Shown here: positions 19,354 to 32,733 of the stretch, piece after piece
Numbering within the stretch: position 1 is the first letter of the stretch
Layout: the number at the start of each line of letters is the position of its first letter
DNA from: an uncultured Hyphomicrobiales bacterium
Lineage (GTDB): Bacteria; Bacteroidota; Ignavibacteria; Kapaibacteriales; UBA2268
Direction: 5' to 3'
Length of the DNA stretch: 64,000 bases
Assembly (NCBI GenBank): GCA_964454975.1
Contig: CAYVVD010000007.1
Coordinates: 63,074 to 127,073 of the forward strand
Notes under the pieces: model-generated
Told to the model about the DNA's origin: nothing
Database searches by the model: none
The model's input: only the letters and a program-made list of their open reading frames with translations
Translations under genes and position numbers: made by a program

Positions 19354-19392
19354 ATAAAAATTCCGGAATCGCTGCAAAGAAATCCCGGAATT
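19352..19392 (-). terminator. Hairpin between converging T9SS gene and tRNA-His (likely terminator)
   Basis: AATTCCGG...CCGGAATT inverted repeat, with a T-tract on the minus strand. Confidence 0.55.
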
Positions 19393-19395
19393 CAG

Positions 19396-19469
19396 GGCGA
19401 GAGACGAGATTTGAACTCGCGACCACCAGAGCCACAATCTGGCGCTCTACCGACTGAGCTACTCCCGCC
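19396..19469 (-). tRNA. trnH: tRNA-His (GTG) with genomic G-1; CCA not encoded
   Basis: GGCGGGAGTAGCTCAGTCGGTAGAGCGCCAGATTGTGGCTCTGGTGGTCGCGAGTTCAAATCTCGTCTCTCGCC: full cloverleaf, anticodon GTG, discriminator C. Confidence 0.97.
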
Positions 19470-19480
19470 ATGTAGAACTA

Positions 19481-19488
19481 CAAATTTA
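19481..19488 (-). promoter_or_regulatory. Bacteroidota-type -7 element (TAAATTTG) for tRNA-His
   Basis: Matches TAnnTTTG, 11 nt upstream of the tRNA 5' end. Confidence 0.6.
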
Positions 19489-19567
19489 AGCAAATTTTAA
19501 ATAAAATCAATTAAGCTTATATTTCATCTTCATTTCCGGTGTCGCAACTCATTCATTATATCATATA

Positions 19568-19600
19568 ATTTCATGAAATATTAATCAATAATTCATGAAA
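19568..19600. promoter_or_regulatory. Tandem TTCATGAA palindromes (candidate operator)
   Basis: ATTTCATGAAAT at 19568-19579 and TTCATGAA at 19592-19599; cores 22 bp apart, upstream of the 12-gene operon. Confidence 0.35.
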
Positions 19601-19762
19601 CTTGATCCAATTTAATAAATTACGTTTATTAAGGTCGCTTAACAATGGGTTATTAAAAATTCATTAAGTTGTATTAATATTTCTTTTGATTATACTTTTA
19701 CTTTTCGATATTTTCCACTACTTAATAAATCCATACCGGTAATTCCACTTCAAGGAGATGAT

Positions 19763-20584
19763 ATGAATAAAATACTGGCAATACTTTCAAACTTCGGTTA
19801 TTGGGGAATTGAGTTTGTCGGTCCAAAGCTTGCCCTCGAGAAAGCGGGCTACTCAATTGAGATATGCACACCCAGGGGCGAAAGGCCAATTGCATTGCCG
19901 CCCAGCTATGACGTAAATTACTGGGACCCGCCGCTCGGCCTTAATGTTACAACCCCCGAAGATGCCGAAGAGGTAAAAAAAGTTGAAGATAGCGACTTTC
20001 TTAATAACCCGAAAAATCTTTCAGAGTGGTTTCCCGAAAGGCCCTATTTCAGCAAAGATAAATTTCTGAGGGAATTTGAAAAATATTATAACGAACTCGA
20101 AGCTGCGGAGAAAGACCTTGAGCAGTATGATGGGGTATTAATCGTAGGCGGAAGCGGGCCGATACTCGACATGGTGAACAATCAGCGTGTTCATGATGTT
20201 ATTCTCGGCTTCCACAAAGCAGACAAGCCGATTGCTGCTATTTGCTACGGGGTTGCCTGCCTCGCCCAGGCACGTGATTTCAACGAAAGGAAATCTATAA
20301 TCCGTGGCAAGCATGTCACGGGGCACTGTATCGAATATGATTACAAGGACGGAACCGGTTTTGTAGGAACTGATTTGAACATAGGCCCACCGCCATATTG
20401 CCTTGAATATATGCTTACTGATGCTGTTGGTCCTGAAGGCGAGTATCACGGTAATTTCGGCAAGCATATATCAGTCATTGTTGACTACCCGTTTATCACA
20501 GCCCGCTCGCTACAGGGTTCTCATGTATTCGGAGAAAAATTTGTTGATATGCTGGACAAAGGTTTAAGGCGCTATGGCTGGTAG
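19763..20584 (+). CDS. DJ-1/PfpI family protein (paralogue 1)
   Basis: GYWGIEF, IVGGSGP, nucleophile elbow AAICYG; AGGAG ribosome-binding site. Confidence 0.85.
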   Translation: MNKILAILSNFGYWGIEFVGPKLALEKAGYSIEICTPRGERPIALPPSYDVNYWDPPLGLNVTTPEDAEEVKKVEDSDFLNNPKNLSEWFPERPYFSKDKFLREFEKYYNELEAAEKDLEQYDGVLIVGGSGPILDMVNNQRVHDVILGFHKADKPIAAICYGVACLAQARDFNERKSIIRGKHVTGHCIEYDYKDGTGFVGTDLNIGPPPYCLEYMLTDAVGPEGEYHGNFGKHISVIVDYPFITARSLQGSHVFGEKFVDMLDKGLRRYGW

Positions 20585-22280
20585 TACAAACAGATTTAAA
20601 ATAATAGAGCAGTTCCTTGCTAATGGTATGAACAGGATGTTTGGCAACCCCGGCACTGTTGAGCAGGGCTTCCTGGATGCTCTTGCCGATTACCCTGAGA
20701 TGAAGTATATCCTTACATTGCAAGAGTCTGTTGCCGTCCTTACCGCTGACGGATATGCCCGCTCTATGAAAAAAAACACGCTTGTTCAGATTCACAGCAC
20801 ACCGGGGCTTGGTAATTCAATAGGCGCTCTTTACCAGGCGATGCGTGGTCATTCCCCGCTTGTTGTTATCGGTGGCGACGCCGGCATAAGGTATATAAAC
20901 ATGGACGCACAGATGGCCGGCGACCTGGTTAGTATTGCAAAGCCTGTCACGAAGTGGGCATCTATGATTTTGGAACCTCAATCCTGCCTGCGCATGATAA
21001 GACGGGCAATCAAAATAGCAGGGACACCGCCGATGGGGCCGGTCTATCTCTGCCTGCCTATGGATGTCCTTGATGCAGAATGCACTGAAGAAATTTACCC
21101 GGTGGGGATTCCTTCAACTCGAGTCCGGCCGGATAGTATTGCAATAGATAATGCAGCAGACATTCTTCTTTCTGCTGAAAAACCAATGATTTTTGTTGGA
21201 GATGGAGTTGCTTATTCCGGGGCTGTAGAAGAACTAACACAAGTAGCAGATTTACTCGGCGCAGAAGTTTATGGCGTGGACTCCGGTGATGTAAACATGG
21301 ACTGGTCGCATCCATTGTGGCAGGGTGCAACAGGACACATGTTCGGCTACCACAGCCTGCCAATTACCCAAAAAGGCGATGTAAACCTTTTGGTGGGAAC
21401 TTACATGGTTCCGGAAGTATTCCCTGAACTTGGTAGTATCTTTGCCTCTAAAGCAAGAAACATACACATCGACCTAAACGCTTATGAAATAGGCAAGAAC
21501 CACAGGGCTGATATTTCTTTTGTTGCGGATCCTAAATTAACTCTGAAAGCTTTATCTGAAGCACTAAATGCAAAGCGAACAAAGGCATACATTACGACCA
21601 TTGAAAGCAGGGTTTCAGAATTATCAAATGCTAAAGAACAAAGTATTGCAGAAGACAAAGAAGCAGATGATAGAATAGCTGATAATGTTCCGATGGATTT
21701 CTCTGTGTTTGCGAAAGAATTGGCGAAAAACCTCCCCGCTGACACTATAATATTTGATGAAGCGCTGACAAGCTCACCTGCTCTGACACGATACATTGTA
21801 CCTAAAAAGGAGGGCTCTTTCTTCCAGACTCGTGGCGGCTCTCTTGGAGTTGGGATCCCAGGGGCAATCGGTTTGAAGGTAGCCAACCCGGACAATACTG
21901 TAATCGGATTTACAGGCGATGGCGGTTCAATGTACACAATACAGGCACTCTGGACTGCTGCCAGGCACAACATTGATGCTAAGTTTGTAATCTGCAACAA
22001 CGGTAGTTACAGGCTGCTCCAGCTAAACATTGATGCTTACTGGCGTGAAAGGAATTTCGGAATACATGCTCATCCGCTTCCATTTGATTTATCCGAACCG
22101 CCTGTTGATTTCGCCGGCCTTGCGGAGGCAATGGGCGTTAAAGCTCTGAAAGTGGAAAAACCTGAAGAAGTTGGCACTGCAATCCGGAAAATGCTGGATC
22201 ACAAGGGGCCTTTTTTAATTGATGTAATTCTCGAAGGGGATAAACATTCGGGGGATGTTGCCCTTCATTGCGGACAATAA
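20574..22280 (+). CDS. Thiamine-diphosphate-dependent enzyme (benzoylformate decarboxylase/acetolactate synthase-like)
   Basis: MFGNPGTVE, LQESVA..ADGYAR, ThDP motif GDGGSMY...NN.SY. Confidence 0.92.
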   Translation: MAGSTNRFKIIEQFLANGMNRMFGNPGTVEQGFLDALADYPEMKYILTLQESVAVLTADGYARSMKKNTLVQIHSTPGLGNSIGALYQAMRGHSPLVVIGGDAGIRYINMDAQMAGDLVSIAKPVTKWASMILEPQSCLRMIRRAIKIAGTPPMGPVYLCLPMDVLDAECTEEIYPVGIPSTRVRPDSIAIDNAADILLSAEKPMIFVGDGVAYSGAVEELTQVADLLGAEVYGVDSGDVNMDWSHPLWQGATGHMFGYHSLPITQKGDVNLLVGTYMVPEVFPELGSIFASKARNIHIDLNAYEIGKNHRADISFVADPKLTLKALSEALNAKRTKAYITTIESRVSELSNAKEQSIAEDKEADDRIADNVPMDFSVFAKELAKNLPADTIIFDEALTSSPALTRYIVPKKEGSFFQTRGGSLGVGIPGAIGLKVANPDNTVIGFTGDGGSMYTIQALWTAARHNIDAKFVICNNGSYRLLQLNIDAYWRERNFGIHAHPLPFDLSEPPVDFAGLAEAMGVKALKVEKPEEVGTAIRKMLDHKGPFLIDVILEGDKHSGDVALHCGQ

Positions 22281-22292
22281 CCAGGAAATCAA

Positions 22293-22985
22293 ATGATACA
22301 CCAGTTAATTTTTGCAAATCCAAAACCCGGTATGAGCGTTAAAGAATTCCAGGACTATTGGCTGAACGTTCATGCTGTTAATTTCGCCAGCAAAATAAAG
22401 CAAATCAAGAAGTACAAAATTGATACAGTCTTTCCGGTTGGCGATGAAAAGCCTCTATTTAATGGTATCGCTGAAATCTGGCTTCACGAAGAAGAACAGA
22501 TTGAATCTCTCCGCTCGGATGAATTTCTTAATGGCGCACGCAGGGATGAACCGAACTGGGCTGCGTTCTGGGAAACTATCGGCCTCGACACAGATGCTCA
22601 CGTAATAGTTGACCCGGGTGAGCTGGAAAGAAATGCTTCAGGCGTGAAACTTGTGTTATTTATTAAGCGAAAAGAGGGCATTAGCCTCGGTGATTTCCGA
22701 AGTAAAAGCTTGGGCGAACATGCCGGAAGAATGCAAGCAATCCCCGGTTTGAAGGGCTATTACCAATGCCATGCGAAAGACGGCCTGTATGCTGTGGGTG
22801 AATCGAGGCTGGATTCTATAGAGTTGCTATGGTTTGAGAATGAAAAAGTCTTAGATGCAACAATTGAATCTGACGAATACAAGAGTTACGTGGAAGGAGA
22901 AATAGCCTCGCTTGTTGAGACTAAATGGCTGTTCAGGATGGCATGCAAAGAGCACTGGGTTATCGGACCGGATTTCAGGGATTGA
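22293..22985 (+). CDS. Tandem EthD-domain protein
   Basis: Two repeats: KPGMS..EF.DYW..VHA and RKEGIS...F.....EHA; FNGIAEIW. Confidence 0.8.
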   Translation: MIHQLIFANPKPGMSVKEFQDYWLNVHAVNFASKIKQIKKYKIDTVFPVGDEKPLFNGIAEIWLHEEEQIESLRSDEFLNGARRDEPNWAAFWETIGLDTDAHVIVDPGELERNASGVKLVLFIKRKEGISLGDFRSKSLGEHAGRMQAIPGLKGYYQCHAKDGLYAVGESRLDSIELLWFENEKVLDATIESDEYKSYVEGEIASLVETKWLFRMACKEHWVIGPDFRD

Positions 22986-22986
22986 T

Positions 22987-23406
22987 TTGAGCCTGGCACA
23001 AAACATATTCAGCCTTTCGGCATGCCTCGCAACATCTGATATTGTAGCAAGCATCAAATGGTATTCTGAATTTTTAGGCTGTAAGGTTGAGGAAAGGCAG
23101 GAGTATCCTGATTATGGCTTCAAGCTTGCTTTTATTTCGCTCGGAACAGTACGTTTCGAGTTAATCGAAATTCCGGGTATTGAACCATTCAAAAGGGAAT
23201 CGCCCCCTAATCATGTTAAAACACAGGGTCTGAGCCAGTTAACATTTTATGTTGAGGACATTGATGCTGCCTGGGAAGAGTTATCGTCAAAAGATATTGC
23301 AATAGCCTCGAAACCGCTCGAATATATCGCTCAGGACACAAAATTCAGAGCATTTATGATTCGCGACAACCAGGGTAATTTACTGGAATTCATTAAAAAA
23401 TATTAA
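22987..23406 (+). CDS. VOC / glyoxalase family protein (ORF open from 22912; TTG 22987 is the likely start)
   Basis: SIKWYSEFLG, FELIE, QLTFYVEDID, IRDNQGNLLEF. Confidence 0.85.
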   Translation: MSLAQNIFSLSACLATSDIVASIKWYSEFLGCKVEERQEYPDYGFKLAFISLGTVRFELIEIPGIEPFKRESPPNHVKTQGLSQLTFYVEDIDAAWEELSSKDIAIASKPLEYIAQDTKFRAFMIRDNQGNLLEFIKKY

Positions 23407-23425
23407 GCCTATAATTATTTCAATT

Positions 23426-24469
23426 ATGAAAGAACTCGATAAAAAGTTAATAAACGCTGTTGACATCCAGGATGTTGAAGCTGTTAAAATGCTTCTTGAT
23501 GAAGGCGCTAACCCAAACACCCGCGATACCGGAAGCGGGCTAACTGTGCTGATGATAGCTGCAGGCCGGGGGAATCCGAAATTAGTCCGGCTGCTAATTG
23601 ATAAAGGTGCCGATGTTTTTGCCTGCGACAGCAAAGCAGGGGCAACAGCTTTGCATAAGGCATGCCAGGGCGGCTCTCTGGAAGTGGTGAAAATCCTTGT
23701 TGATAATGGAGCCTTCATTAATGCTGTTGTTGTTTCAACAGGCCATACAGCATTAATTGAAGCGCTGTGGTTCAAGCAGGCAGATATATGCAAGTATCTG
23801 ATTGAGCAGAACGCCGGAATTAATCTGTCCACTCATTATGGTTTTACAATTCTTCAGCATTTTGAATACGCTATGAATGTAAACCAGGTAGGCAGGGAAA
23901 AGCTTCTCGAAGCTGATAAAGCCCTGAAATCCCGCCAAAGCCATGATGCCGGAATGGTAGAAACTCAGAAACTTATGAAGGCAGTTGTTGAGAATAACCT
24001 TAAAGAAGTACAGGCGCTGATATCCGCAGGCGCTGAAATTGATGAACGCTCGCCTGTATTGAACGGATTCAATGATTACCACACGCCATTGCTTGTTGCC
24101 TGCCGCGACGGGCACACAGAAATTGTAAAAGAACTTATAAACGCCGGTGCAGATATAAACGCTGTTGAGCCGACCTTCGGAGCTGTTCCATTGCACAAAG
24201 CTACATATAACGGCAGGGCTGATATTACACAAATTCTGGTTGAACAGGTTGGCATCAACCTCGATTACCAGGGCCCAACCAACGGTTATGCTCCTCTTCA
24301 TGATGCACTTTGGCATGGTTTTGCTGATTGCAGCGTAATTCTTATCAAAGCCGGAGCAAGTCTCGTGCTTAAAGGGCACGACGGCAAAACACCGCTGCAG
24401 ATAGCAACGGAGATGTTTGGGGAAGGACATGAAATTGTAGAATTGATAAGAGAAAAATCAACAAATTAA
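23426..24469 (+). CDS. Ankyrin-repeat protein
   Basis: Multiple repeats, e.g. GLTVLMIAAGRGN, GATALHKACQGG, HTPLLVACRDGH, GAVPLHKATYNG, GYAPLHDALWHG. Confidence 0.95.
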   Translation: MKELDKKLINAVDIQDVEAVKMLLDEGANPNTRDTGSGLTVLMIAAGRGNPKLVRLLIDKGADVFACDSKAGATALHKACQGGSLEVVKILVDNGAFINAVVVSTGHTALIEALWFKQADICKYLIEQNAGINLSTHYGFTILQHFEYAMNVNQVGREKLLEADKALKSRQSHDAGMVETQKLMKAVVENNLKEVQALISAGAEIDERSPVLNGFNDYHTPLLVACRDGHTEIVKELINAGADINAVEPTFGAVPLHKATYNGRADITQILVEQVGINLDYQGPTNGYAPLHDALWHGFADCSVILIKAGASLVLKGHDGKTPLQIATEMFGEGHEIVELIREKSTN

Positions 24470-24479
24470 GGAGATTGAT

Positions 24480-24890
24480 ATGGATGCAAATGAAGTAGCT
24501 CATAAATGGTTTGATGCACTAAAAAGCGGGGACACTGACACAGCAATGAGCCTGCTCGATGAAAATGTTACCTGGATAAACATGGCTCCTGAGCCGGGTG
24601 TCAGCGACGTCTTGCCATGGATTGGCAGTTACCAGGGCCTGGAAAAATTCCTGAAAGCTTTCGGAGTTTACCAGTCAGTTGTTGATGTAAAATTCATCGA
24701 ACCGACAAACCTGATTGTAGAGGGCAACCAGGCATTTGCAATGGTTCATGAGATCGGTGAAGTTAAGCATAATGGCAGGCAGTTCGATATCGAATTCGGG
24801 CTTTTGATGAAAATCGAAAACGGCAAGATTGTCTGGTGGAAATCACTTACCGATTCATCTCATATTGTCGCTGCATGGCTTGGAATGTAA
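24480..24890 (+). CDS. SnoaL-like / NTF2-family protein
   Basis: WFDAL..GD......LLDENVTW, W.G.Y.G, IENGKIVWWK. Confidence 0.85.
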   Translation: MDANEVAHKWFDALKSGDTDTAMSLLDENVTWINMAPEPGVSDVLPWIGSYQGLEKFLKAFGVYQSVVDVKFIEPTNLIVEGNQAFAMVHEIGEVKHNGRQFDIEFGLLMKIENGKIVWWKSLTDSSHIVAAWLGM

Positions 24891-24914
24891 TATTAAATAT
24901 CAAAGGATAAGAAG

Positions 24915-25535
24915 ATGTTTTTTTATAATAAAATGCGCTGGGAACTGAAAGGCATGACTTTCGACCAGCTTTGGGACATAGAAAAAGTTGAAGCTCAAAC
25001 CGGGGTTGAAACGATTGAAGAAGGTATAGTGCCTCATCTCTACAAAGTGGCTTCAGAGCAGTATGTAATTGCAATTGGGGATGCACCTTCCGCGGAAGAA
25101 CTCGATCGCTTTTCTATGGGAAGGCTGCCAATGCATGAATACCTAATGTTCGAAGCTGTATGGCCGCTTGATGAGATTTATACAATAGACCTTGTAAAAT
25201 ATTTCGATAACAGGAGAGAAAAATTTCCTGATAATCCCTCGTTCCTGATGTACATCGAACTGGCATGGAATGATACAGACAGGTATCTCGATCTGAACTG
25301 GGGCAGGATACGTCATTTTGCCCGTGGATTTGAGAGCAACGATACTCAAATCCTCAGCATATACCGTGTCTCCGGTACTCAGAAAATAATAGCAATTGTT
25401 GACTTTGCCGATTCTATGGCAATCAGCCGTTTTGTAGCAAATGAAGTATTTGACGGCTCCAAGACTGATAAGGTCTGGACATTACGAGACTACGTTGGAT
25501 TTGCTGACGATGTTGTTAAACATTACAAAGTTTGA
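24915..25535 (+). CDS. Internally duplicated muconolactone-delta-isomerase-like protein
   Basis: Halves align: LYKVASEQYVIAIGD...RF...VWPL vs IYRVSGTQKIIAIVD...RF...VWTL; MIase-like ferredoxin pattern recognised by eye. Confidence 0.5.
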   Translation: MFFYNKMRWELKGMTFDQLWDIEKVEAQTGVETIEEGIVPHLYKVASEQYVIAIGDAPSAEELDRFSMGRLPMHEYLMFEAVWPLDEIYTIDLVKYFDNRREKFPDNPSFLMYIELAWNDTDRYLDLNWGRIRHFARGFESNDTQILSIYRVSGTQKIIAIVDFADSMAISRFVANEVFDGSKTDKVWTLRDYVGFADDVVKHYKV

Positions 25536-26396
25536 TTGATGGAATCATTTGTAAAAATCCATTCATTTACATCTGACGCCAAGACCTGGTTTGTAAATCT
25601 TTTTGTCGTTGAGGGTAAAGAGGGTGTTGTCCTTGTTGACGGGGCAATGACTATTAGCTTCGCTGAAAAAGTCAGACATTTTATCAGGGATGAATTAAAA
25701 AAGCCAATCCTCGCTGCAGTGCTTACTCACGGCCATCCGGACCATTACTCGGCTGTCGGTGAAATAATAAAAGGATATGATATCCCCTATTATTCACTCC
25801 CGGGGGCAAAAAAACAGGCAATGGAACGCGAAAAGGAAGAGCTTGAAGGGATGCTCCGGGTATTTGGAGATGATTACCCAAAAGAGAGGATTTTTCCTAA
25901 CACAATAATCAGCGATGGCGATTCAATAGAACACGGCGATATTAAAATGACTGTAAGGGACTTTGGCCCGGGCGAATCGGATTCAGATTCCGCCTGGACT
26001 GTTGAAACCCCAGACGAAAATAAAGTGGTAATCGGTGATTTGATTTATAATCACATGCACTGTTTCCTGCTCGACGGCCATCCGGTTGATTGGCTTAAAA
26101 GCATTGAATTGCTTAAATCAAATTACCACGACGGTTCAACTTTTCACCCTTCTCATGGCATATCCTGCGGGCGTGAAATGCTTTACTGGCAGGAATCATA
26201 CCTGAAAATGTTTATCAACTCCGCCTGGGAGATTTTCGGGGATGACCGAACTATGACAGATACAAAACAACAAGCGATACTAAACAGGTTGAAATCATTC
26301 CTTCCAAATGATAACCTGCTATTCCTTGCAGGATTCAGGATCGATGAAACAATCAGTAAAATTTTAGACCAAACAAAAAACCTCGGAGAGAATTAA
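25536..26396 (+). CDS. Metallo-beta-lactamase-fold hydrolase
   Basis: LVDG, THGHPDH (HxHxDH), GDLIY, PSHG. Confidence 0.9.
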   Translation: MMESFVKIHSFTSDAKTWFVNLFVVEGKEGVVLVDGAMTISFAEKVRHFIRDELKKPILAAVLTHGHPDHYSAVGEIIKGYDIPYYSLPGAKKQAMEREKEELEGMLRVFGDDYPKERIFPNTIISDGDSIEHGDIKMTVRDFGPGESDSDSAWTVETPDENKVVIGDLIYNHMHCFLLDGHPVDWLKSIELLKSNYHDGSTFHPSHGISCGREMLYWQESYLKMFINSAWEIFGDDRTMTDTKQQAILNRLKSFLPNDNLLFLAGFRIDETISKILDQTKNLGEN

Positions 26397-27152
26397 ATGG
26401 GATTCAAGTTACTTGTAATAGCTTCAAACTACGGGCTTTGGGCAGAAGAACTTCAGGCACCGTGGGATGCACTCAAAAAGGCAGGACACGAACTCCGGCT
26501 TGCAACATTTCTAGGCAAAACACCTCTACCATTTAAACTTAGCATGGATACCGAATTTATTGATCCGATGATTAATCAACCCATGAACCCGAAGGAAGTG
26601 GTTGACAGGGTAAACGAAATCCTCGACAATGGTGAATGGGACAACCCGATAAAGACTGCAGACGCTAAAATGATGGACTATGACCATCTTGTTATTGTAG
26701 GCGGACCCGGAGCTGCTCTGGACATTACTGGAAATATGTTCGTGCATAAGCTTATATTTGATGCCTACAAAAGCGGCAAAACTATTGGTACATTATGCTA
26801 TGCAGTGGGAGCACTTGCATTTACACGCGACCCTGATAATGGCAACAAGAGCATCATCTATGGTAAAAACATTGTTGCGCACCCGCATGCGTGGGATTTT
26901 GACGTAGATGTAGTTTACGATGTGGAGCGTGCTACTGAGGAAAATCCAAATATTAAAATGCGCACTGCAGGATTTGTCTTCCCGCTTCAGTATATGGTAC
27001 AGGATGCCGTAGGCCCGGATGGCAAAGTGATTTTCGATTTGAAAGCTAACCGCTTTGCCCCATGTTCAAATTACGATGCACCATTTGTTACGGCGCAATC
27101 AGTAGAATCATCCGCAATATTCGGCGAAAGGCTTGTCGAAGTATTCAGTTAA
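26397..27152 (+). CDS. DJ-1/PfpI family protein (paralogue 2)
   Basis: GLWAEEL, IVGGPGA, elbow TLCYA; similar layout to 19763 paralogue. Confidence 0.82.
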   Translation: MGFKLLVIASNYGLWAEELQAPWDALKKAGHELRLATFLGKTPLPFKLSMDTEFIDPMINQPMNPKEVVDRVNEILDNGEWDNPIKTADAKMMDYDHLVIVGGPGAALDITGNMFVHKLIFDAYKSGKTIGTLCYAVGALAFTRDPDNGNKSIIYGKNIVAHPHAWDFDVDVVYDVERATEENPNIKMRTAGFVFPLQYMVQDAVGPDGKVIFDLKANRFAPCSNYDAPFVTAQSVESSAIFGERLVEVFS

Positions 27153-27161
27153 GGAGGTTCA

Positions 27162-27740
27162 ATGAAATTAACCGGTAAAAAAGTCGGACTGCTTATAGAA
27201 AGTGATTTTTATGAACCGGAGATAGCTTACTACCAGCACCGGTTCATGGAAGAGGAAGTCGATCTCCGATTGCTCACAAGGCTTTGGGGACAGGAATCAA
27301 TTACTTTCACCGGGCATGAAAACAGGTTGAACACAATAACAGCGAATGAATCATTTGAAAATATTTCCGATGATGGGTTAGCGACTTATGAAGCAATAAT
27401 TGTCCCTTCCGGTATGGTTTCCGACAGGTTACGCTATACTGAAGACATTAACAAGATTCCTCCTGCAACAGAATTCCTGGGTCTTGCATTTGCTAATAAG
27501 AGTATAATCAAAGGGATAATATGTCATGGTTTGTGGCTTTGTGCTCCGAATACGGATTTGGTTAAAGGTCGCAATCTCGTTTGTCACAACAACCTGATTG
27601 GCGATGCAAAAGCATACGGCGCAAATTATGTAGATGAAGACTATGTTGTTGACGGCGATCTGGTTACTGCAAGAACCGGCGGCCATTGTCATCTGCTTGC
27701 GAGAACAATCATCGGGTTGATGTATGAAAAAGCGGGGTGA
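27162..27740 (+). CDS. DJ-1/PfpI family protein (paralogue 3, PfpI-like)
   Basis: ESDFYEPE, IICHG elbow, VVDGDLVTAR. Confidence 0.88.
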   Translation: MKLTGKKVGLLIESDFYEPEIAYYQHRFMEEEVDLRLLTRLWGQESITFTGHENRLNTITANESFENISDDGLATYEAIIVPSGMVSDRLRYTEDINKIPPATEFLGLAFANKSIIKGIICHGLWLCAPNTDLVKGRNLVCHNNLIGDAKAYGANYVDEDYVVDGDLVTARTGGHCHLLARTIIGLMYEKAG

Positions 27741-27753
27741 TTTTTTTATATCG

Positions 27754-27834
27754 TGCCAGTCTTCGACTCCGCTCAGACTGAAACTAATTGCATGTGTTGA
27801 TATGTGTCACACTGAGCGAAGTTGAAGTGTGGCA
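27754..27834. repeat. REP-like imperfect inverted repeat (CTTCGACTCCGCTCAG / CTGAGCGAAGTTGAAG type)
   Basis: 28-nt arms 27754-27781 and 27807-27834, 22/28 complementary by hand count. Confidence 0.7.
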
Positions 27835-27876
27835 AATCATTTCAGTTGATGGCTTAACCTAATACCATAAAAATAC

Positions 27877-27896
27877 GGGCGAAAGATTTTTCGCCC
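27877..27896. repeat. REP-like hairpin GGGCGAAA-GATT-TTTCGCCC
   Basis: Perfect 8-bp stem in the intergenic spacer before glgX. Confidence 0.55.
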
Positions 27897-27944
27897 AACA
27901 ATCGAAAGAAAAATGTTTTAATAAAATTATAAAAACTGAAACCA

Positions 27945-30017
27945 ATGCCACTATTTAATGTTACACGAGGAAAACCGCATCCGCAAGGTGCTACGCTGGA
28001 CGATAACGGGGTGAATTTCTCACTCTATTCCGAAAATGCCGATGGTGTAGAACTACTGCTCTTTGATAAAAATGACGATACAGTTCCATTCCAGACAATT
28101 CAGTTCGACCGGATGGAAAACCGCACTTTCCACTTCTGGCACGTATTTGTGGAAGGACTGAAAGCAGGTTGTTATTATAATTACCGTGTTTATGGCCCGT
28201 GGCAGCCGGAAAGAGGGCACATTTTTAACCCTGATAAGGCTTTGCTTGATCCATACGGCAAAGGGACAATTTATAAAATCTTCGACAGAGGGGCTGCCTG
28301 CAATCCTGATGACAATGTTGCTAAGGCGCTAAGGAGTGTTACGGTAGATACCCGTAGATATGACTGGGAGGGAGATAACTATCCCCGGACAGCACTAAAA
28401 GATACAATCATTTATGAGATGCATGTTGGGGGATTCACAAGAAACTCAAACTCCGGGGTAGCCAATCCCGGTACATTCAAAGCGGTTATCGAAAAAATAC
28501 CATACTTGAAATCATTGGGAGTAACGGCTGTGGAATTATTGCCGGTTTTCAGCTTTGATGACCAGACTCCTCTCAGGCACCTGCCAAACGGTACTCCACT
28601 TTTCAATTACTGGGGATATAGCACAGTATCATTCTTTGATCCACATTCATCTTTTTGTGTAAACCCACACGAAGCAGAGCATATTAATGAGTTCAGGGAT
28701 ATGGTGAAAGCTTTGCATAAAGAGGGGATTGAGGTGATTCTTGATGTGGTATTCAATCACACTGACGAAGGGAACCACAAAGGGCCATACCTTAATTTCA
28801 AAGGAATCGACAACACTACATATTATTATCTCGTAGCCGGGAATATGCAATTCTATTACGATTATTCGGGGTGCGGTAACACAGTGAAAGCAAACCACCC
28901 GCTTGTAAGTAAGTTCATCAACGATTGCCTTAAATTCTGGGTAGAGGAAATGCATGTAGATGGTTTTCGTTTTGATGAGGGGTCAATTCTTTCCCGCGGC
29001 GAAGATGGCAGCCCTATGGAACGCCCGCCATTAATCTGGGGGCTGGAGCTATCAGAGACATTCTCAGATACCAAGCTGATTGCTGAAACATGGGAAGCCT
29101 CCGGCCTCAATTTATTGGGCAGGTTCCCGGGCTACCGCTGGTGTGAATGGAATGGCAAATACCGCGATGCAATAAGAAGATTCGTAAAGGGTGATCCAGG
29201 GATTGTTGGCGAAGTTGCTACCCGGATTTCCGGAAGCGCTGACCTTTACCAATATGAACGCCATAAACCCATAAACTCAATCAATTTTATTGCCTGCCAC
29301 GACGGCTTCAATATGATGGATCTTGTTTCTTACAACGTAAAGCACAACGACCCGAACGGAGAGGATAACCGCGATGGTGTTAACGACAATCTTAGCTGGA
29401 ACTCTGGAATCGAAGGTGCTTCAGATAACGAGGATGTTAATAATTTCCGCAAGCGCAGGATTAAAAATTTTATAACAATCCTTATGCTATCGCAGGGTGT
29501 GCCGATGTTCCTTTCGGGGGACGAGGCGGGAAAGTCGCAGGATGGCAATAACAATGTCTATTGCCAGAACAACGAGACTTCCTGGTTCGATTGGGAACTA
29601 ACCGAATCAAATTCTGATCTGATAGAATATTTCAGCCGACTTGTCTCATTCCGGAAAGCAAATTCATTCCTCAGAAAGGATGAATATTTCACCGGAGCTG
29701 AAAATTCCCGCGGACTGAAAGATATTGACTGGCACGGCACAAAGATTTATCAACCCGAATGGAATTTTCCTTTCTCACGGGTTCTGGCATTTACTATGGG
29801 TGCCTTTGCAGAAGGCGAGAACGATATCCATGTGATGATGAACATGCATTACCAGCCCCTGGAATTTGAAGTTCCACAAATTGAAGGGCATAAATGGTAT
29901 CTTTTCTCTGACACATCAAAACCGGGGGGAGAAGAGTTTGACGACAGCTTGTCTGTTCCGGTTGAAGGTAAATTTTTAGTAAGCGATTCATCAATAGTCA
30001 TATTAATTTTGAAATAG
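27945..30017 (+). CDS. glgX: Glycogen debranching enzyme / isoamylase (GH13)
   Basis: GVNFSLYS, IIYEMHVGGFT, NYWGYST, DVVFNHT, DGFRFD, FIACHDGF, SQGVPM. Confidence 0.95.
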   Translation: MPLFNVTRGKPHPQGATLDDNGVNFSLYSENADGVELLLFDKNDDTVPFQTIQFDRMENRTFHFWHVFVEGLKAGCYYNYRVYGPWQPERGHIFNPDKALLDPYGKGTIYKIFDRGAACNPDDNVAKALRSVTVDTRRYDWEGDNYPRTALKDTIIYEMHVGGFTRNSNSGVANPGTFKAVIEKIPYLKSLGVTAVELLPVFSFDDQTPLRHLPNGTPLFNYWGYSTVSFFDPHSSFCVNPHEAEHINEFRDMVKALHKEGIEVILDVVFNHTDEGNHKGPYLNFKGIDNTTYYYLVAGNMQFYYDYSGCGNTVKANHPLVSKFINDCLKFWVEEMHVDGFRFDEGSILSRGEDGSPMERPPLIWGLELSETFSDTKLIAETWEASGLNLLGRFPGYRWCEWNGKYRDAIRRFVKGDPGIVGEVATRISGSADLYQYERHKPINSINFIACHDGFNMMDLVSYNVKHNDPNGEDNRDGVNDNLSWNSGIEGASDNEDVNNFRKRRIKNFITILMLSQGVPMFLSGDEAGKSQDGNNNVYCQNNETSWFDWELTESNSDLIEYFSRLVSFRKANSFLRKDEYFTGAENSRGLKDIDWHGTKIYQPEWNFPFSRVLAFTMGAFAEGENDIHVMMNMHYQPLEFEVPQIEGHKWYLFSDTSKPGGEEFDDSLSVPVEGKFLVSDSSIVILILK

Positions 30018-30025
30018 GAGATTAC

Positions 30026-32149
30026 ATGCAAAACATGCAGTTCACCTTCTCGGATCTGATCGCAGGTTATGTAAAAACCTTTGATTTCGCGAGCAATGTT
30101 TTCAAGCTCGCAACAAGCGACGGCCGTGAATACGATGTGAAAATCACCGAGGATTGCTTTGCGGAAATAGTTCGCAACCTCGGCGAGCCATTTATAGATG
30201 CCACCGGAACAATGCGAGATATGCTCCAGAAAGGGCGCTTCTTATTTGTTTATGGGGTGTTCTTCCCCGAAGGCGATAAGCCATTCGAAGCAAAACACAT
30301 TGTTTTTCTTGGGAGAACAGAAAGAGAATACCGTTTTGAAGACCCCAACTGGTGGGTAAAACAAATTGAACAGCTTGGAGATTTTTATATACAAGGGCAG
30401 TTTGGCGGTGGGGAAAAAATTGATTTTAAAATTTACCGCACAGAGCTTACTCTTGAGGGAACAAAAGAAGGCAAGGCACGCCAGGAAACTGATACTATTT
30501 CCCGACTTGTATATGGTTTTGCCTCGGCATACATGATTACAGGGAAGGATATATTCCTCGAAGCTGCAGAACGGGGTACAGAATACCTCCGCAAGCATTT
30601 CCGTGCTGAGGACCTGAATCAGGACATCGTTTTCTGGTACCATGCAATTGACATCGAAGGCGACACCATTAAAAAAATATTCGCTTCAGAATTTGGCGAT
30701 GATTACGATGCCATTCCATGTTACGAGCAGATTTATGCTCTTGCAGGTCCTGTCCAGACATACCGTGCAACCGGCGATAAAAGAATATACGACGATGCAA
30801 AAAAGACGTTAAACCTATTCAATAAATACTATAAAGACAACAAGTTGGGGGGTTATTTCTCGCATATTGACCCTGTTACATTTGACCCGCGCTCTGAATC
30901 ACTTACCCGCAACCGCGCACGCAAAAACTGGAACTCGGTTGGCGACCATAACCCGGCATATTTGATTAATCTATACCTGGCAACAGGTGAGCAAGAGCTT
31001 GCCGATATGCTCAAATACACATCTGATACAATTGTAGAGCGCTTCGGCGATTATGACCACAGCCCGTTTGTACAGGAAAAATTCCATGAGGACTGGAGCA
31101 AAGACCAGGAGTGGGGATGGCAGCGCAACCGGGCAGTTGTAGGGCACAACCTAAAGATTGCCTGGAACCTGACGCGTGCCTTCAACATGGAGAATAAATC
31201 AAGTTACCAGGATTTCGCTGCGAGGATTGCCGCATTGATGCCGCACAACGGCAGTGACAGGCAGCGCGGGGGTTGGTACGACGTAGTTTACAGGCTACTT
31301 GGCGATGGCGAAGATTTCCACAGGTTCGCATGGCACGACCGTAAAGCCTGGTGGCAGCAGGAACAGGGAATTCTTGCATACCTGATTCTACATGGTACTT
31401 ACGGAAATGCAGAATACCTGAAACATGCCCGTGAATCTACAGCTTTCTATAATGCATGGTTCCTCGACCATGATTCCGGAGCAGTTTACTTCAATGTGCT
31501 TGCTAACGGCATCCCTTACCTGATGGGCACGGAGCGTGAAAAAGGTTCCCACTCGATGAGCGGTTACCATTCTTTCGAGCTTTGCTACCTGGCAGCGATT
31601 TACTCAAATCTGCTAATTACAAAGAATCCGATGAACTTCTATTTCAAACCATACCCTAACCAGTTGCCTGGCAACACTCTCAGAGTAGCGCCTGATTTAT
31701 TGCCTGAAGGAAGCATTAAAATTGAATCGGTTTCTGTTAACGGCCTTCCTTACAAAGATTTCGACGCAGAAGCTCTGACTGTTAACCTGCCGGATTCAGA
31801 AGACAGGGTAAACGTTATTGTAAGAATTGCTCCAACGACAAGAGTTGATCATTTTGCATCCAGGCTTAGCATTGAAAATAATGAGGCAATTATAATTATT
31901 AACGGTGAGTTGGATGTTCGTGCTTTGCCTCATTTCAGAAAAGAGTTGGAAAACGCCTGTAATTGCACAATGCTGACTCTAGATATGTCTGCTCTCACTC
32001 ACTTGTCACCTGAAGGCGCCAGGGCGATTGTATTTGCAAGGCAAAAGATGGGAGTGGATGAAAAAATAACAATTAAGGGAGCTTCCGGGCAAGTTATGGA
32101 GCTTCTGCAATTGGACGAGTTCACCGAAGAAGTTGAATTGGCGAGTTAA
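30026..32149 (+). CDS. AGE-family (N-acylglucosamine/cellobiose 2-epimerase-like) protein fused to C-terminal STAS domain
   Basis: VGHNLKIAW, KAWWQQE, GYHSFE epimerase-like motifs; tail INGELD...LDMSALTHLSPEGARAI...GQVMELL is STAS-like. Confidence 0.8.
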   Translation: MQNMQFTFSDLIAGYVKTFDFASNVFKLATSDGREYDVKITEDCFAEIVRNLGEPFIDATGTMRDMLQKGRFLFVYGVFFPEGDKPFEAKHIVFLGRTEREYRFEDPNWWVKQIEQLGDFYIQGQFGGGEKIDFKIYRTELTLEGTKEGKARQETDTISRLVYGFASAYMITGKDIFLEAAERGTEYLRKHFRAEDLNQDIVFWYHAIDIEGDTIKKIFASEFGDDYDAIPCYEQIYALAGPVQTYRATGDKRIYDDAKKTLNLFNKYYKDNKLGGYFSHIDPVTFDPRSESLTRNRARKNWNSVGDHNPAYLINLYLATGEQELADMLKYTSDTIVERFGDYDHSPFVQEKFHEDWSKDQEWGWQRNRAVVGHNLKIAWNLTRAFNMENKSSYQDFAARIAALMPHNGSDRQRGGWYDVVYRLLGDGEDFHRFAWHDRKAWWQQEQGILAYLILHGTYGNAEYLKHARESTAFYNAWFLDHDSGAVYFNVLANGIPYLMGTEREKGSHSMSGYHSFELCYLAAIYSNLLITKNPMNFYFKPYPNQLPGNTLRVAPDLLPEGSIKIESVSVNGLPYKDFDAEALTVNLPDSEDRVNVIVRIAPTTRVDHFASRLSIENNEAIIIINGELDVRALPHFRKELENACNCTMLTLDMSALTHLSPEGARAIVFARQKMGVDEKITIKGASGQVMELLQLDEFTEEVELAS

Positions 32150-32171
32150 TTCATTTGCTAATCCGGGATTT

Positions 32172-32199
32172 GTAGAGATAAAAAATATTGTTTCTCTAC
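32172..32199. repeat. REP-like hairpin GTAGAGA...TCTCTAC
   Basis: 7-bp terminal inverted repeat directly after the operon. Confidence 0.45.
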
Positions 32200-32212
32200 C
32201 TTCTAAAACATT

Positions 32213-32527
32213 TTGATCAACATGAAAGTACTAATCATAAGAATTGGAAGGTTCCTCAAGAAGCCCGGCTTCACTATGTTTATGGGATTTATGCTCATAA
32301 TTGCCGGGATCATTGAAATTGCGGAAGTTGTAACTGTGGAGTTTATCGGCTTCGATGTGGAAACACACCATATAATAATACTCTTTGGTTTCAACCAGCT
32401 GATTCTTGCAATAAGCCACATGATAGAAGGCATGGAAGATGTCGAATTAATACGTGAAGAAGAGGAAATTGAAGAAGTTCAGAAAATTGAAAAGCAGGAA
32501 CTTGAAGATATAGAAAGAAAGAAGTAA
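32213..32527 (+). CDS. Small two-TM membrane protein with acidic tail
   Basis: Two hydrophobic segments then EEEEIEEVQKIEKQELED; followed by a terminator. Confidence 0.6.
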   Translation: MINMKVLIIRIGRFLKKPGFTMFMGFMLIIAGIIEIAEVVTVEFIGFDVETHHIIILFGFNQLILAISHMIEGMEDVELIREEEEIEEVQKIEKQELEDIERKK

Positions 32528-32545
32528 TATTTTATGCGATTAACT

Positions 32546-32573
32546 AAAGGGGGCTTATTATGCCCCTTTTTTT
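32546..32573 (+). terminator. Rho-independent terminator
   Basis: AAAGGGGGC-TTATTAT-GCCCCTTTTTTT. Confidence 0.8.
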
Positions 32574-32733
32574 GTTTTATTCATGGCTTGATAATTAATA
32601 TTAGGTTAATTTTCCTAAATTTGTTGATAGAATAAAGCTTTTGAATTATTTTCTGTAACTTTAATAGAAGGTGGATTGTCTATTGGGTAAGTAGGGTGCA
32701 AACAAAGAATTATATATTATTTATAACTAATTA

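Follow-up and report, generated by a model that had tools for sequence, protein, structure and literature searches.

The operon that begins at position 19763 of the window (the whole stretch of 64,000 nucleotides that was analysed) is very probably a conserved module of the icfG type. [quoted passage not shown] The original view of it as the best candidate for an undescribed system does not hold as it stands, since the core that never varies corresponds to the enzyme half of icfG; its remark that the genes match no nameable pathway stands, no biochemical pathway being assigned to them. The icfG-type enzyme core is spread over hundreds of species in many phyla, beyond the cyanobacteria. The best explanation is that this variant keeps the enzyme module of an icfG-type glycogen/carbon-status cluster but has lost its phospho-relay. 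Taken as a whole, with a glucan-derived sugar isomerised and carbonyls handled by the accessory enzymes, we would give this explanation a probability of about 0.45.

The grouping of these families far exceeds what chance would give, since they recur in a constant order at more than 100 loci in many phyla. Anchoring on AGE gave 107 places, of which 107 have AGE, 105 STAS, 101 GlgX and 80 the PfpI-type DJ-1 protein (DJc). Around a second anchor, the ThDP-dependent enzyme (80 places), another DJ-1 gene (DJa) adjoins in 74, DJc is present in 51, AGE within 10 kb in 42 and GlgX in 37. The AGE anchor matches at least 591 species genomes and the ThDP anchor at least 582; the loci around both number more than 180 and come from at least 15 phyla. 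These counts bear out the predicted co-conservation across phyla, and the AGE/PfpI/ThDP/GlgX groupings that had been suggested for cyanobacteria and actinobacteria are real, as seen in Streptomyces (L099, L100, L106) and in many cyanobacteria. The invariant core consists of a GlgX-type GH13 enzyme, the highly conserved AGE epimerase/isomerase, STAS and the PfpI-type DJ-1 protein, with GlgX no more than two genes from AGE in 90 of 106 loci. AGE and STAS are fused in 64 loci and split in 42; RsbW is found in 0/64 of the fused loci versus 33/42 of the split, and PP2C in 2/64 versus 35/42. Cluster members are also fused to one another as Sno-Ank, CMD-EthD, EthD-DJc and RsbW-PP2C.

Published annotation is available for slr1853, 1855, 1856, 1857, 1859, 1860 and 1861. 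The order in Synechocystis salina (L074), CMD, DJc, AGE, STAS, GlgX, STAS, PP2C, RsbW, corresponds to the numbering slr1853–1861, and the published slr1857 primer (PMC4911114) differs from the start of the cluster GlgX at 1 position in L084 and at 3 in L074. The window resembles the icfG cluster in its homologous DJ-1 (slr1854 position), Slr1855-like AGE, Slr1857/GlgX2 and Slr1859-like STAS module, and in its neighbourhood logic, many cyanobacterial versions carrying CMD, EthD, VOC, SnoaL and DJa-ThDP as well. It differs in lacking the Slr1856-type STAS, Slr1861-type kinase and IcfG-type PP2C (tblastn found no RsbW, PP2C or free STAS within the window), in having its STAS fused to AGE and devoid of the phospho-serine, and in its order, GlgX then AGE rather than AGE, STAS, GlgX. 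Its accessory set, nine enzyme/ankyrin genes and a membrane protein, is also the largest seen among the loci here. In Synechocystis the operon reacts to changes in N, C and salt status, and phosphorylation of Slr1856 and Slr1859 is maximal early in resuscitation from chlorosis. Work on icfG so far has studied the signalling proteins but not the enzymes, save that GlgX2 is reported to be inactive on glycogen.

The twelve co-directional genes predicted between 19763 and 32149 were all found, on the + strand and with coordinates that agree with the sequence, and Pfam returned for each the domain that had been named. The first two (g1 and g2) overlap by 11 nt and the successive gaps after g2 are 12, ~1, 19, 10, 24, 0–3, 0, 9, 204 and 8 nt, that is, as claimed, tight spacing (0–24 nt) apart from a single 204-bp gap before glgX. 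AGGAG-like sites lie upstream of g1, g6, g10 and g12. The prediction of one operon is upheld but not its count of twelve, as a 13th gene downstream belongs to the same unit. This gene, g13 (32222–32527, + strand), encodes a small two-helix membrane protein of ~101 aa with an acidic tail and has no match in Pfam or NCBIfam; homologues lie directly 3' of AGE::STAS in at least eight other loci (L022, L023, L025, L030, L045, L049, L050, L051). The sole + strand terminator 3' of the operon genes follows g13 and closes the operon, an intrinsic terminator at 32546–32570 with a 9-bp stem containing 5 GC pairs and then a T run. At the other end, an AT-rich leader of 294 bp (19469–19762, + strand), the presumed promoter region, separates g1 from a tRNA-His gene on the minus strand (19395–19468); an Rfam search of the leader found no riboswitch or other Rfam family. 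The 204-nt gap between g10 and g11 (27741–27944, + strand) is a structured RNA with a minimum free energy of −57.3 kcal/mol (z = −5.57; 0/200 shuffles fold as well) and a GC hairpin at 27876–27897, while in a Kapabacteria relative the gap at this position is only 7 nt.

The AGE::STAS fusion is g12 (GlcNAc_2-epim+STAS; 30026–32149, + strand). Its residues 1–605 (30026–31840; Pfam GlcNAc_2-epim, 52.1 bits) form the AGE-superfamily sugar 2-epimerase/isomerase domain, the Slr1855 equivalent, which has a beta domain at its N-terminus and a beta sandwich at its C-terminus. The AF2 model has a pLDDT of 80.8, and the best Foldseek matches of the AGE part are glucose 2-epimerase 8h1n (E 3e-14), cellobiose 2-epimerase 3wkf, mannose isomerase and YihS, at just 17–20% identity to the solved superfamily members. 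R160, H308 and H374 align with three positions of RmCE, which we take to be R66, H200 and H259 in the published RmCE numbering. The conserved active-site loops have a pLDDT below 50 (at 214–226, 411–440 and 481–513), and therefore no substrate can be inferred from the structure. Residues 606–707 (31841–32149; Pfam STAS, 29.7 bits) are the fused, Slr1859-like STAS domain, well folded in the model (pLDDT 82–92) and having an ...FxKQKMG motif in common with the post-GlgX STAS. The phospho-Ser in SAGLR is invariant in the free STAS proteins (39/39 and 32/32); the window has Pro at this position, which varies among 56 fused proteins. The window STAS is not phosphorylatable at the canonical site and is probably a fixed docking or regulatory domain. 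Because g12 carries it, the earlier claim that the operon has no regulator gene needs a caveat.

Of the other two core genes, g10 (DJc; 27162–27740, + strand; 192 aa; Pfam, 58.4 bits) is the PfpI-type DJ-1 equivalent to Slr1854, and the Synechocystis salina gene at the slr1854 position is of the same family. Its I-C121-H122 nucleophile elbow is kept across 67 homologues, and the nucleophile Cys is conserved in each of the three DJ-1 families (DJa, DJb, DJc). The GlgX/isoamylase-type GH13 enzyme, g11 (27945–30017, + strand; 690 aa), is the Slr1857/GlgX2 equivalent and scores 693.9 bits against a TIGR02100 cut-off of 640.9; its catalytic residues, Asp in GFRFDEG, Glu in AETWE and His-Asp in CHDGF, align and are intact. 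GlgX, AGE and the three DJ-1 proteins all retain their catalytic residues. Synechocystis GlgX2 (slr1857) had no glycogen debranching activity in vitro and proved dispensable, its knockout having no phenotype (bioRxiv 10.1101/2022.11.21.517384); therefore the true substrate is perhaps not glycogen at all.

The accessory genes, all on the + strand, include two recurring pairs, DJa-ThDP and DJb-MBL; VOC, EthD, SnoaL, MIase-like and ankyrin genes recur as well. DJa is g1 (19763–20584; DJ-1/ThiJ_like, 273 aa; PF17124, 62.9 bits), whose nucleophile Cys161 is kept across 33 homologues and to which Arabidopsis DJ-1D is the closest solved structure (E 2.5e-12); among the AGE-anchored loci, 28 have it next to the ThDP gene, in addition to the ThDP-anchored ones given above. 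The ThDP-dependent enzyme g2 (20574–22280; 568 aa; Pfam TPP_enzyme N, M and C) is benzoylformate-decarboxylase/acetolactate-synthase-like, with benzoylformate decarboxylase as the closest solved structure (E 1e-58); it scores under all NCBIfam equivalog cut-offs, and at least 582 species genomes encode homologues at 56–65% identity. DJb, g9 (26397–27152; DJ-1/ThiJ_like, 251 aa; DJ-1_PfpI, 34.5 bits), is the partner of the metallo-beta-lactamase-fold hydrolase g8 (25539–26396; 285 aa; Lactamase_B, 57.7 bits), the two adjoining in 6 loci. Cys134 of g9 is kept across 12 homologues, with relatives at 54–55% identity in Balneolales and Salinivirgaceae, and the closest solved structures to g8 are hydroxyacylglutathione hydrolase (E 1.9e-6) and next the VIM enzymes. 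The EthD-domain protein g3 (22293–22985; 230 aa; PF07110, 46.5 bits) has counterparts 3' of the ThDP gene in L001, L026, L030 and L035. The VOC/glyoxalase-fold protein g4 (22987–23406; 139 aa; Glyoxalase, 52.9 bits) has an ambiguous start, TTG 22987 giving a typical 139-aa VOC protein and TTG 22912 a 74-nt overlap with g3; a VOC gene lies beside DJc/AGE in 30 loci. The ankyrin-repeat protein g5 (23426–24469; 347 aa; Ank_2, 200 bits) is 62% identical to that of the Crocosphaera locus L007, and in other loci ankyrin is frequently fused to SnoaL. The SnoaL_2/NTF2-like protein g6 (24480–24890; 136 aa; PF12680, 46.7 bits) has its like in 20 AGE-anchored and 40 ThDP-anchored loci, and g7 (24915–25535; 206 aa) is a tandem muconolactone-isomerase-like protein of dimeric alpha+beta barrel fold (MIase, 34.8 bits, residues 1–86), whose residues 1–85 and 110–206 each match one single-domain gene in L007. 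The accessory set differs by lineage, even between loci with a shared core, a variation that we count against the favoured explanation.

The chemistry that we propose for the module is tentative. The GlgX-type enzyme would free an alpha-glucan-derived oligosaccharide with an unblocked reducing end, the AGE domain would epimerise or isomerise its reducing-end residue via an ene-diol, and reactive products, whether carbonyls or ene-diols, would be scavenged or converted by the DJ-1 proteins with their Cys nucleophiles and by the VOC, MBL and ThDP enzymes. Where AGE and STAS are split, flux or signal would be gated by the RsbW-like kinase and PP2C phosphatase acting on the two free STAS proteins. 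Among characterised proteins, the closest to the products of the DJ-1, VOC and MBL genes are DJ-1D (presumably a glyoxalase III), PfpI/YhbO, lactoylglutathione lyase and hydroxyacylglutathione hydrolase. They are of glyoxalase III, I and II type, which weakly favours the predicted carbonyl-stress role over the predicted metabolite pathway. Aldo-keto reductase and GMC oxidoreductase genes, which recur among relatives, belong to the same theme. Against the carbonyl theme, we know of no role for the ThDP, EthD, SnoaL, MIase-like or ankyrin genes in carbonyl detoxification. Against the favoured explanation more generally, no enzyme of the module has a demonstrated activity on record, and a kinase, phosphorylase or transporter linking the product to central metabolism is absent.

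It is possible, but rather improbable, that the locus is instead a dedicated pathway from an alpha-glucan-derived sugar to a specific small metabolite (for instance an osmolyte, a signal or a redox-active derivative of a sugar). The isomerised sugar would come from GlgX and AGE, to be tailored by the ThDP enzyme (C-C cleavage/ligation), EthD, SnoaL, MIase-like and VOC proteins and by oxidoreductases of the GMC and aldo-keto reductase types, whose genes recur among relatives. The g2-type ThDP enzyme and DJa are conserved as strongly as AGE, a pattern more in keeping with a defined substrate than with generic detoxification. In cyanobacteria, single polypeptides join EthD, SnoaL, VOC and CMD (e.g. 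an 807-aa protein in L010), as is typical of consecutive pathway steps, and the loci of Nostoc contain in addition a GH63/MGH1-like hydrolase, an SDR and an MIP channel. However, accessory content differs widely between loci with the same core, the window has no activating enzyme (kinase, nucleotidyltransferase or ligase) and no exporter, the enzyme set is not that of any known natural-product or osmolyte pathway, and the Synechocystis omics papers tie no metabolite to the icfG cluster.

Less readily, AGE::STAS might be mainly an RsbR-like sensor that binds the sugar released by GlgX and reports glycogen/carbon status to a partner-switching network, whose target would be a sigma factor encoded elsewhere and for which the remaining genes would be stress-regulon cargo; we consider this unlikely. 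Split loci do place AGE beside an RsbW-like kinase, PP2C and two STAS proteins that can be phosphorylated; in Synechocystis the kinase Slr1861 is the anti-SigC factor, and the cluster has a link to carbon signalling (PMC12329169). The fusion of AGE to a Slr1859-like STAS is a Rosetta-stone link between enzyme and signalling proteins, and GlgX2 lacks ordinary debranching activity. But the fused STAS has no conserved Ser and the window and 64 of 106 loci have no nearby kinase/phosphatase, and therefore the canonical switch cannot operate; no sigma or anti-sigma gene adjoins the operon, the nearest ECF sigma being 11 kb away; and the invariance across phyla of the AGE catalytic Arg/His and ~200 other columns argues for catalysis. 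Finally, a chance run of unrelated general-stress genes beside glgX, although DJ-1, VOC, MBL, EthD and SnoaL are each common in stress regulons and the accessory set is variable, is effectively refuted by the synteny at two independent anchors, by the overlapping or translationally coupled starts and by the member-member fusions, AGE::STAS among them, and has a negligible probability.

Several known systems resemble parts of the favoured enzyme module. Like GlgX, TreX and plant isoamylase (GH13_11), g11 clears TIGR02100 and matches the solved GlgX, TreX and ISA1 structures (E 1e-133 to 1e-167), but it is of a cluster-linked paralogue type, and fused-type cluster members have GFRFDEG, not GFRFDLA, after the nucleophile. 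Precedents for the proposed pairing of a glycosidase with an AGE-type enzyme exist in sulfoglycolysis (YihQ with the isomerase YihS) and in Bacteroides mannan catabolism (mannanase and cellobiose 2-epimerase, with mannosylglucose phosphorylase). There, as here, a glycoside hydrolase gene adjoins that of an AGE-fold enzyme, which acts, or in the window would act, on the reducing-end sugar, and the window shares the fold and the aligned catalytic Arg/His/His; it lacks the downstream kinase, aldolase or phosphorylase, and its AGE domain, with the extra beta domain and beta sandwich, is ~200 residues longer and is fused to STAS. The VOC, MBL and Cys-nucleophile DJ-1 folds encoded together recall glyoxalases I, II and III (GloA, GloB, HchA/DJ-1), but scores are far under the cut-offs (GloA 32.8 versus 165, GloB 21.2 versus 200.8, HchA 33 versus 365; g4 reaches just 29–33 bits against lactoylglutathione lyase models with cut-offs of 120–165), there is no sign of a glutathione link, and the linkage of these genes to GlgX/AGE and a ThDP enzyme has no parallel in the glyoxalase system. 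Another established system, that of RsbR-type fusions of a sensor to STAS and of partner switching by RsbV/SpoIIAA, is matched by the N-terminal 'input' domain and C-terminal STAS of the window protein and by split relatives with their two STAS, RsbW-like kinase and PP2C. The window differs from it in a STAS without the phosphorylatable Ser or a cognate kinase nearby, and in an input domain that is a full-size, apparently catalytic sugar epimerase.

The twelve open reading frames originally predicted for the operon were all found on the + strand, and the domains named for them are matched by Pfam assignments. In order, they encode a DJ-1/ThiJ_like protein (g1, 19763–20584; DJa), a three-domain ThDP enzyme (g2, 20574–22280), an EthD protein (g3), a VOC protein (g4, whose start at 22912 or 22987 is ambiguous), an ankyrin protein (g5), a SnoaL_2 protein (g6), a muconolactone-isomerase-like protein (g7), read as a tandem duplication because both halves match the same single-domain homologue, an MBL protein (g8), a second DJ-1/ThiJ_like protein (g9; DJb), a PfpI-type DJ-1 (g10; DJc), GlgX (g11; TIGR02100 score 693.9 bits against a cut-off of 640.9) and a GlcNAc_2-epim domain joined to a STAS domain (g12; AGE::STAS). 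A 13th gene, g13 (32222–32527, + strand), which the original prediction lacked, encodes a small two-helix membrane protein; at eight or more other loci a homologue sits directly 3′ of AGE::STAS. The sole + strand terminator 3′ of the genes (32546–32570) follows g13. The tight spacing claimed for the genes was also borne out, with one 11-nt overlap and then gaps of 0–24 nt, except for 204 nt before glgX, and AGGAG-like sites are present 5′ of g1, g6, g10 and g12. An AT-rich leader of 294 bp separates g1 from an upstream tRNA-His gene on the minus strand. An Rfam scan of 19300–32800 for a riboswitch or leader RNA gave tRNA only.

The 204-nt spacer between the DJc gene and glgX (27741–27944) has an unusually stable predicted RNA fold (MFE −57.3 kcal/mol, z −5.57, 0/200 shuffles), containing a long imperfect hairpin and a GC hairpin (27876–27897); nothing else like it occurs in the window, and Rfam gives no match to it. 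Since the corresponding gap in a Kapabacteria relative is only 7 nt, the spacer is suggestive of an insertion specific to this lineage, or of an element for RNA processing or attenuation. Recent horizontal transfer is not supported by composition (operon GC 0.441, rest of the window 0.419, with GC3 within the spread of the other genes), and insertion as an island is not indicated because the 3′ end of the neighbouring tRNA-His points away from the operon. An anti-phage defence system was likewise rejected, the PADLOC matches being generic ankyrin-repeat and GH13 ones only.

The flanks encode T9SS-sorted proteins (C-terminal sorting domains in the products of 10715–14197, 17914–19353, 32734–35160, 35262–37490 and 53156–55633), a Na+/H+ exchanger, an ECF sigma factor 11 kb away and two flagellins in tandem (37942–38877 and 38907–39842). 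Together with the 71% best match of AGE in Kapabacteria, these flanking genes suggest a host of Ignavibacteria/Kapabacteria type, and the pairing of flagellins with T9SS sorting domains speaks against a classical Bacteroidia. No gene for glycogen synthesis or phosphorylase is present within the window. At E ≤ 1e-4, Pfam matches none of three consecutive large + strand ORFs (45173–47479, 47519–49270 and 49319–50773; 768, 583 and 484 aa), after which comes an OmpA-VWA gene (50884–52242); a similar OmpA-VWA gene is found at 6275–7687.

The operon is real and strongly conserved. A protein search with AGE gave 4634 homologues at E ≤ 1e-10, the best (71% identity) in Kapabacteria, and the protein is ~60% identical in Vibrio, Bacillus, Acidobacteria, Planctomycetes, Nitrospinota, Competibacter, Chlorobi, Chloroflexota, Actinomycetota, Deinococcota and cyanobacteria. 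Scanning one genome per species for AGE gave 21 loci at first and then at least 591 matches, of which 80 were kept. The ORFs of 106 loci and of the window were labelled with iterated HMMs made from the window genes. AGE was present at 107 of the 107 places, STAS at 105, GlgX at 101 and DJc at 80, followed by DJa/DJb (40), ThDP (38), VOC (30), GMC oxidoreductase (28), CMD (26), EthD (24), SnoaL (20) and ankyrin (15). DJa lies immediately 5′ of ThDP in 28 AGE-anchored loci, and DJb beside MBL in six. As a reciprocal anchor, the ThDP enzyme is 56–65% identical in at least 582 species; within 10 kb of it, the counts over 80 loci were 74 for DJa, 51 for DJc, 42 for AGE, 40 for SnoaL, 38 for VOC and 37 for GlgX. 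The called-gene context in Kapabacteria, Bacillus, Vibrio, Luteitalea and Competibacter is consistent with the HMM-labelled loci. Similar groupings in distant phyla, which the original prediction had mentioned, are thus verified by the synteny around both anchors and by the called genes. Hundreds of species in at least 15 phyla carry the enzyme core, at 55–70% identity, and among the loci examined the accessory set is most complete in the window.

Cluster members are also fused to one another in other phyla, as RsbW–PP2C (L109, L137, L141), EthD–DJc (L065) and SnoaL–ankyrin (L111, L135, L138 and others), and such fusions are independent evidence that the proteins work together. An 807-aa multi-domain CMD/EthD protein is encoded at L010:5424–7847.

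The core is not, as had been proposed, an undescribed system: it is the enzyme part of the icfG cluster of Synechocystis (slr1852–1862). The prediction of a conserved operon stands, but its core belongs to a cluster already named, one whose enzymes are nevertheless biochemically unexplained. The icfG cluster has been known as a carbon-signalling locus since the 1990s, and work on it has been limited to its signalling proteins. It is described as one operon, encoding a carboxymuconolactone decarboxylase (slr1853), an "unknown" (slr1854), an "N-acetylglucosamine 2-epimerase" (Slr1855), STAS proteins (Slr1856 and Slr1859), GlgX2 (Slr1857), the PP2C IcfG (Slr1860) and a kinase and anti-SigC factor (Slr1861) (PMC8670252; PMC12329169; PMC3564720). 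It responds to nitrogen, carbon and salt status, and phosphorylation of Slr1856 and Slr1859 is highest early in resuscitation from chlorosis. No published function for Slr1852–1855 was found in the literature searched.

The correspondence is one of gene order as well as sequence. Synechocystis salina (L074) has exactly the order CMD, DJc, AGE, STAS, GlgX, STAS, PP2C, RsbW, and the published slr1857 forward primer (PMC4911114) has one mismatch to the start of the cluster GlgX in Synechocystis sp. L084. The adjoining AGE and GlgX genes of both these loci have their counterparts in the adjacent g12 and g11, which are 55–64% and 42–47% identical, respectively, to the cyanobacterial cluster genes, and the PfpI-type DJ-1 has its counterpart in g10, the L074 gene at the slr1854 position being PfpI-like. 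Most cyanobacteria have the order DJc, AGE, STAS, GlgX, STAS, RsbW-like kinase, PP2C, which is also found in Streptomyces, Cytophagales, Anaerolineae and others. A protein of ~187 aa at the slr1852 position (29 loci, including L027:7055–7618, L074:8364–8975 and L104:8303–8869) is absent from the window. It has no Pfam or NCBIfam match, is extremely conserved, with E ~1e-90 between Competibacter and cyanobacteria, and elsewhere is fused to the C-terminus of EthD–EthD proteins.

The conserved core of GH13 enzyme, AGE enzyme, STAS and PfpI comes in two regulatory architectures. In 42 of the 106 loci it is split, with free STAS proteins beside AGE; in the other 64 a STAS domain is fused to the C-terminus of AGE. 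RsbW accompanies 33/42 of the split loci and 0/64 of the fused, and PP2C 35/42 and 2/64. The fused STAS is like the STAS that follows GlgX (Slr1859 type), the FxKQKMG motif being common to both. In both free STAS families every SAGLR motif keeps its Ser (39/39 and 32/32). At this position the 56 fused proteins have S (15), T (12), P (11), E (5), A (4) or K (3), and the window has Pro.

The split, kinase-bearing form is not confined to cyanobacteria. It is found in cultivated Dyadobacter, Rhabdobacter, Persicitalea, Spirosoma, Nibrella and Streptomyces (Cytophagales isolates L134, L139, L128, L149 and L157; Streptomyces L099, L100 and L106), carriers that would be tractable experimental hosts. 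In Nostocales (L053–L062, L067, L070) genes for a GH63/MGH1-like hydrolase, an SDR, a MIP channel, VOC and a double SnoaL lead up to the fused form, and a conserved trio comes after it, made up of a response-regulator/thioredoxin-reductase-like fusion, a cNMP-binding histidine kinase and LtrA. Two copies occur in Nostoc sp. NIES-4103. A contig labelled "uncultured Klebsiella sp." (L019, CAZJIF010000050.1) bears a split-type cluster whose closest counterparts are picocyanobacterial, and the contig has probably been mis-binned in the public record.

The catalytic residues of GlgX are retained. Besides scoring above the TIGR02100 cut-off, g11 keeps the GH13 Asp/Glu/Asp, its D (GFRFDE), E (AETWE) and HD (CHDGF) aligning to ISA1 and TreX. 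An apparent loss of the region II and III motifs, which would have made GlgX dead, was an artefact of a too-strict regex pattern; alignment shows the catalytic residues intact. Synechocystis GlgX2, the cluster-linked homologue, was reported to lack debranching activity, being inactive in a coupled GlgP assay, and to give no knockout phenotype (bioRxiv 10.1101/2022.11.21.517384).

The AGE domain has the (alpha/alpha)6-barrel fold (PF07221, 52.1 against a cut-off of 23.4). In Foldseek its AlphaFold model (pLDDT 80.8), in which several invariant loops are poorly modelled, hits glucose 2-epimerase, cellobiose 2-epimerase, mannose isomerase and YihS at E 3e-14 to 1e-10; over 8h1n, 3wkf, 5x32, 2rgk and 2gz6, E runs from 3e-14 to 1e-8 and TM (target) from 0.67 to 0.79. 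R160, H308 and H374, which are invariant (among ~200 invariant columns), align with three positions of the cellobiose 2-epimerase RmCE, namely R66, H200 and H259, which together with H390 are the RmCE catalytic residues. The fourth catalytic residue, a His, lies outside the alignment, and the invariant H509 and H515 of AGE are no more than candidates for it. Opposite RmCE E262, AGE has Lys377. AGE is not a cellobiose 2-epimerase, since it scores 23 on the NCBIfam equivalog with a cut-off of 800; NCBIfam has no model for AGE::STAS, g13 or the Slr1852-like protein.

The nucleophile-elbow Cys of the DJ-1/PfpI superfamily is kept in all three DJ-1 proteins (C161 in g1 and 33 homologues, C134 in g9 and 12, C121–H122 in g10 and 67). 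The nearest solved relatives are DJ-1D for DJa, PfpI and YhbO for DJc, hydroxyacylglutathione hydrolase for MBL and benzoylformate decarboxylase (BFD) for the ThDP enzyme, and all four proteins score well under the curated equivalog cut-offs. With its three ThDP-enzyme domains, g2 matches BFD structures at ~E 1e-58, but its best equivalog scores, 287, fall short of the cut-offs of 363 and 493, and it belongs to a subfamily distinct from benzoylformate decarboxylase and acetolactate synthase. The GMC oxidoreductase slot seems to be filled by different subfamilies: the Competibacter protein (L027:7723–9270) is cholesterol-oxidase-like (E 5e-76 to 1coy), and that of Crocosphaera looks to be of the choline-dehydrogenase (BetA-like) type, as read from its N-terminal sequence rather than a database match. 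This heterogeneous group, absent from the window, was rejected as a clue to the substrate.

We propose, with a probability of roughly 0.3, that the AGE::STAS, GlgX and PfpI core with the DJa–ThDP pair forms a pan-bacterial, unrecognised alpha-glucan-sugar route, gated by a partner-switching phospho-relay in the split form and constitutively coupled in the fused form. A debranched oligosaccharide might be isomerised at its reducing end and then undergo oxidative or ThDP-dependent C–C chemistry. In the tentative chemistry that we envisage, the GH13 enzyme would free an oligosaccharide from alpha-glucan, the AGE domain would epimerise or isomerise its reducing end, and the reactive carbonyl or ene-diol products could be processed by the DJ-1, VOC, MBL and ThDP enzymes. 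The reducing-end step follows the logic of other pairs of a glycosidase and an AGE enzyme, YihQ–YihS and mannanase with cellobiose 2-epimerase. If true, this would provide the first biochemical function for Slr1852–1855 and the "inactive" GlgX2, and explain the link made by the icfG cluster between glucose and inorganic-carbon responses.

The very high conservation of DJa–ThDP and the multi-domain fusions favour a rival reading, a dedicated pathway to a sugar-derived metabolite. That AGE::STAS is instead a sensor is suggested by the partner-switching context, but the invariance of the catalytic residues and the degeneracy of the STAS domain argue against it. Chance juxtaposition of the genes is refuted by the synteny.

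The enzyme core is a general bacterial module and no longer a cyanobacterial curiosity, with a natural kinase-less, STAS-fused form and accessory enzymes that make up a defined set. Simpler systems for a substrate search are offered by, for example, Bacillus solimangrovi, Vibrio navarrensis, Streptomyces and the Cytophagales isolates, and the role of the icfG-cluster enzymes is now directly testable in many organisms.

Compared with known systems, the operon differs from glyoxalases I, II and III in missing their family cut-offs (GloA 32.8 against 165, glyox_I 29.4 against 120, GloB 21.2 against 200.8, HchA 33 against 365 and DJ-1 glyoxalase III 21.8 against 131). SpoIIAA/RsbV antagonists have a phosphorylatable Ser and a cognate kinase, whereas the STAS of g12 has the fold (Pfam 29.7 against a cut-off of 22.6; model pLDDT 82–92) without the Ser, and fails TIGR00377 (23.4 against 53.45); tblastn found no kinase, phosphatase or free STAS within the 64-kb window. 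The icfG cluster itself has two free phosphorylatable STAS proteins (Slr1856 and Slr1859), the RsbW-like kinase Slr1861 and the PP2C IcfG. In place of these, the window has one AGE-fused, Slr1859-like STAS in which the Ser is replaced by Pro, and is thus a distinct kinase-less, STAS-fused form of the icfG-type module.
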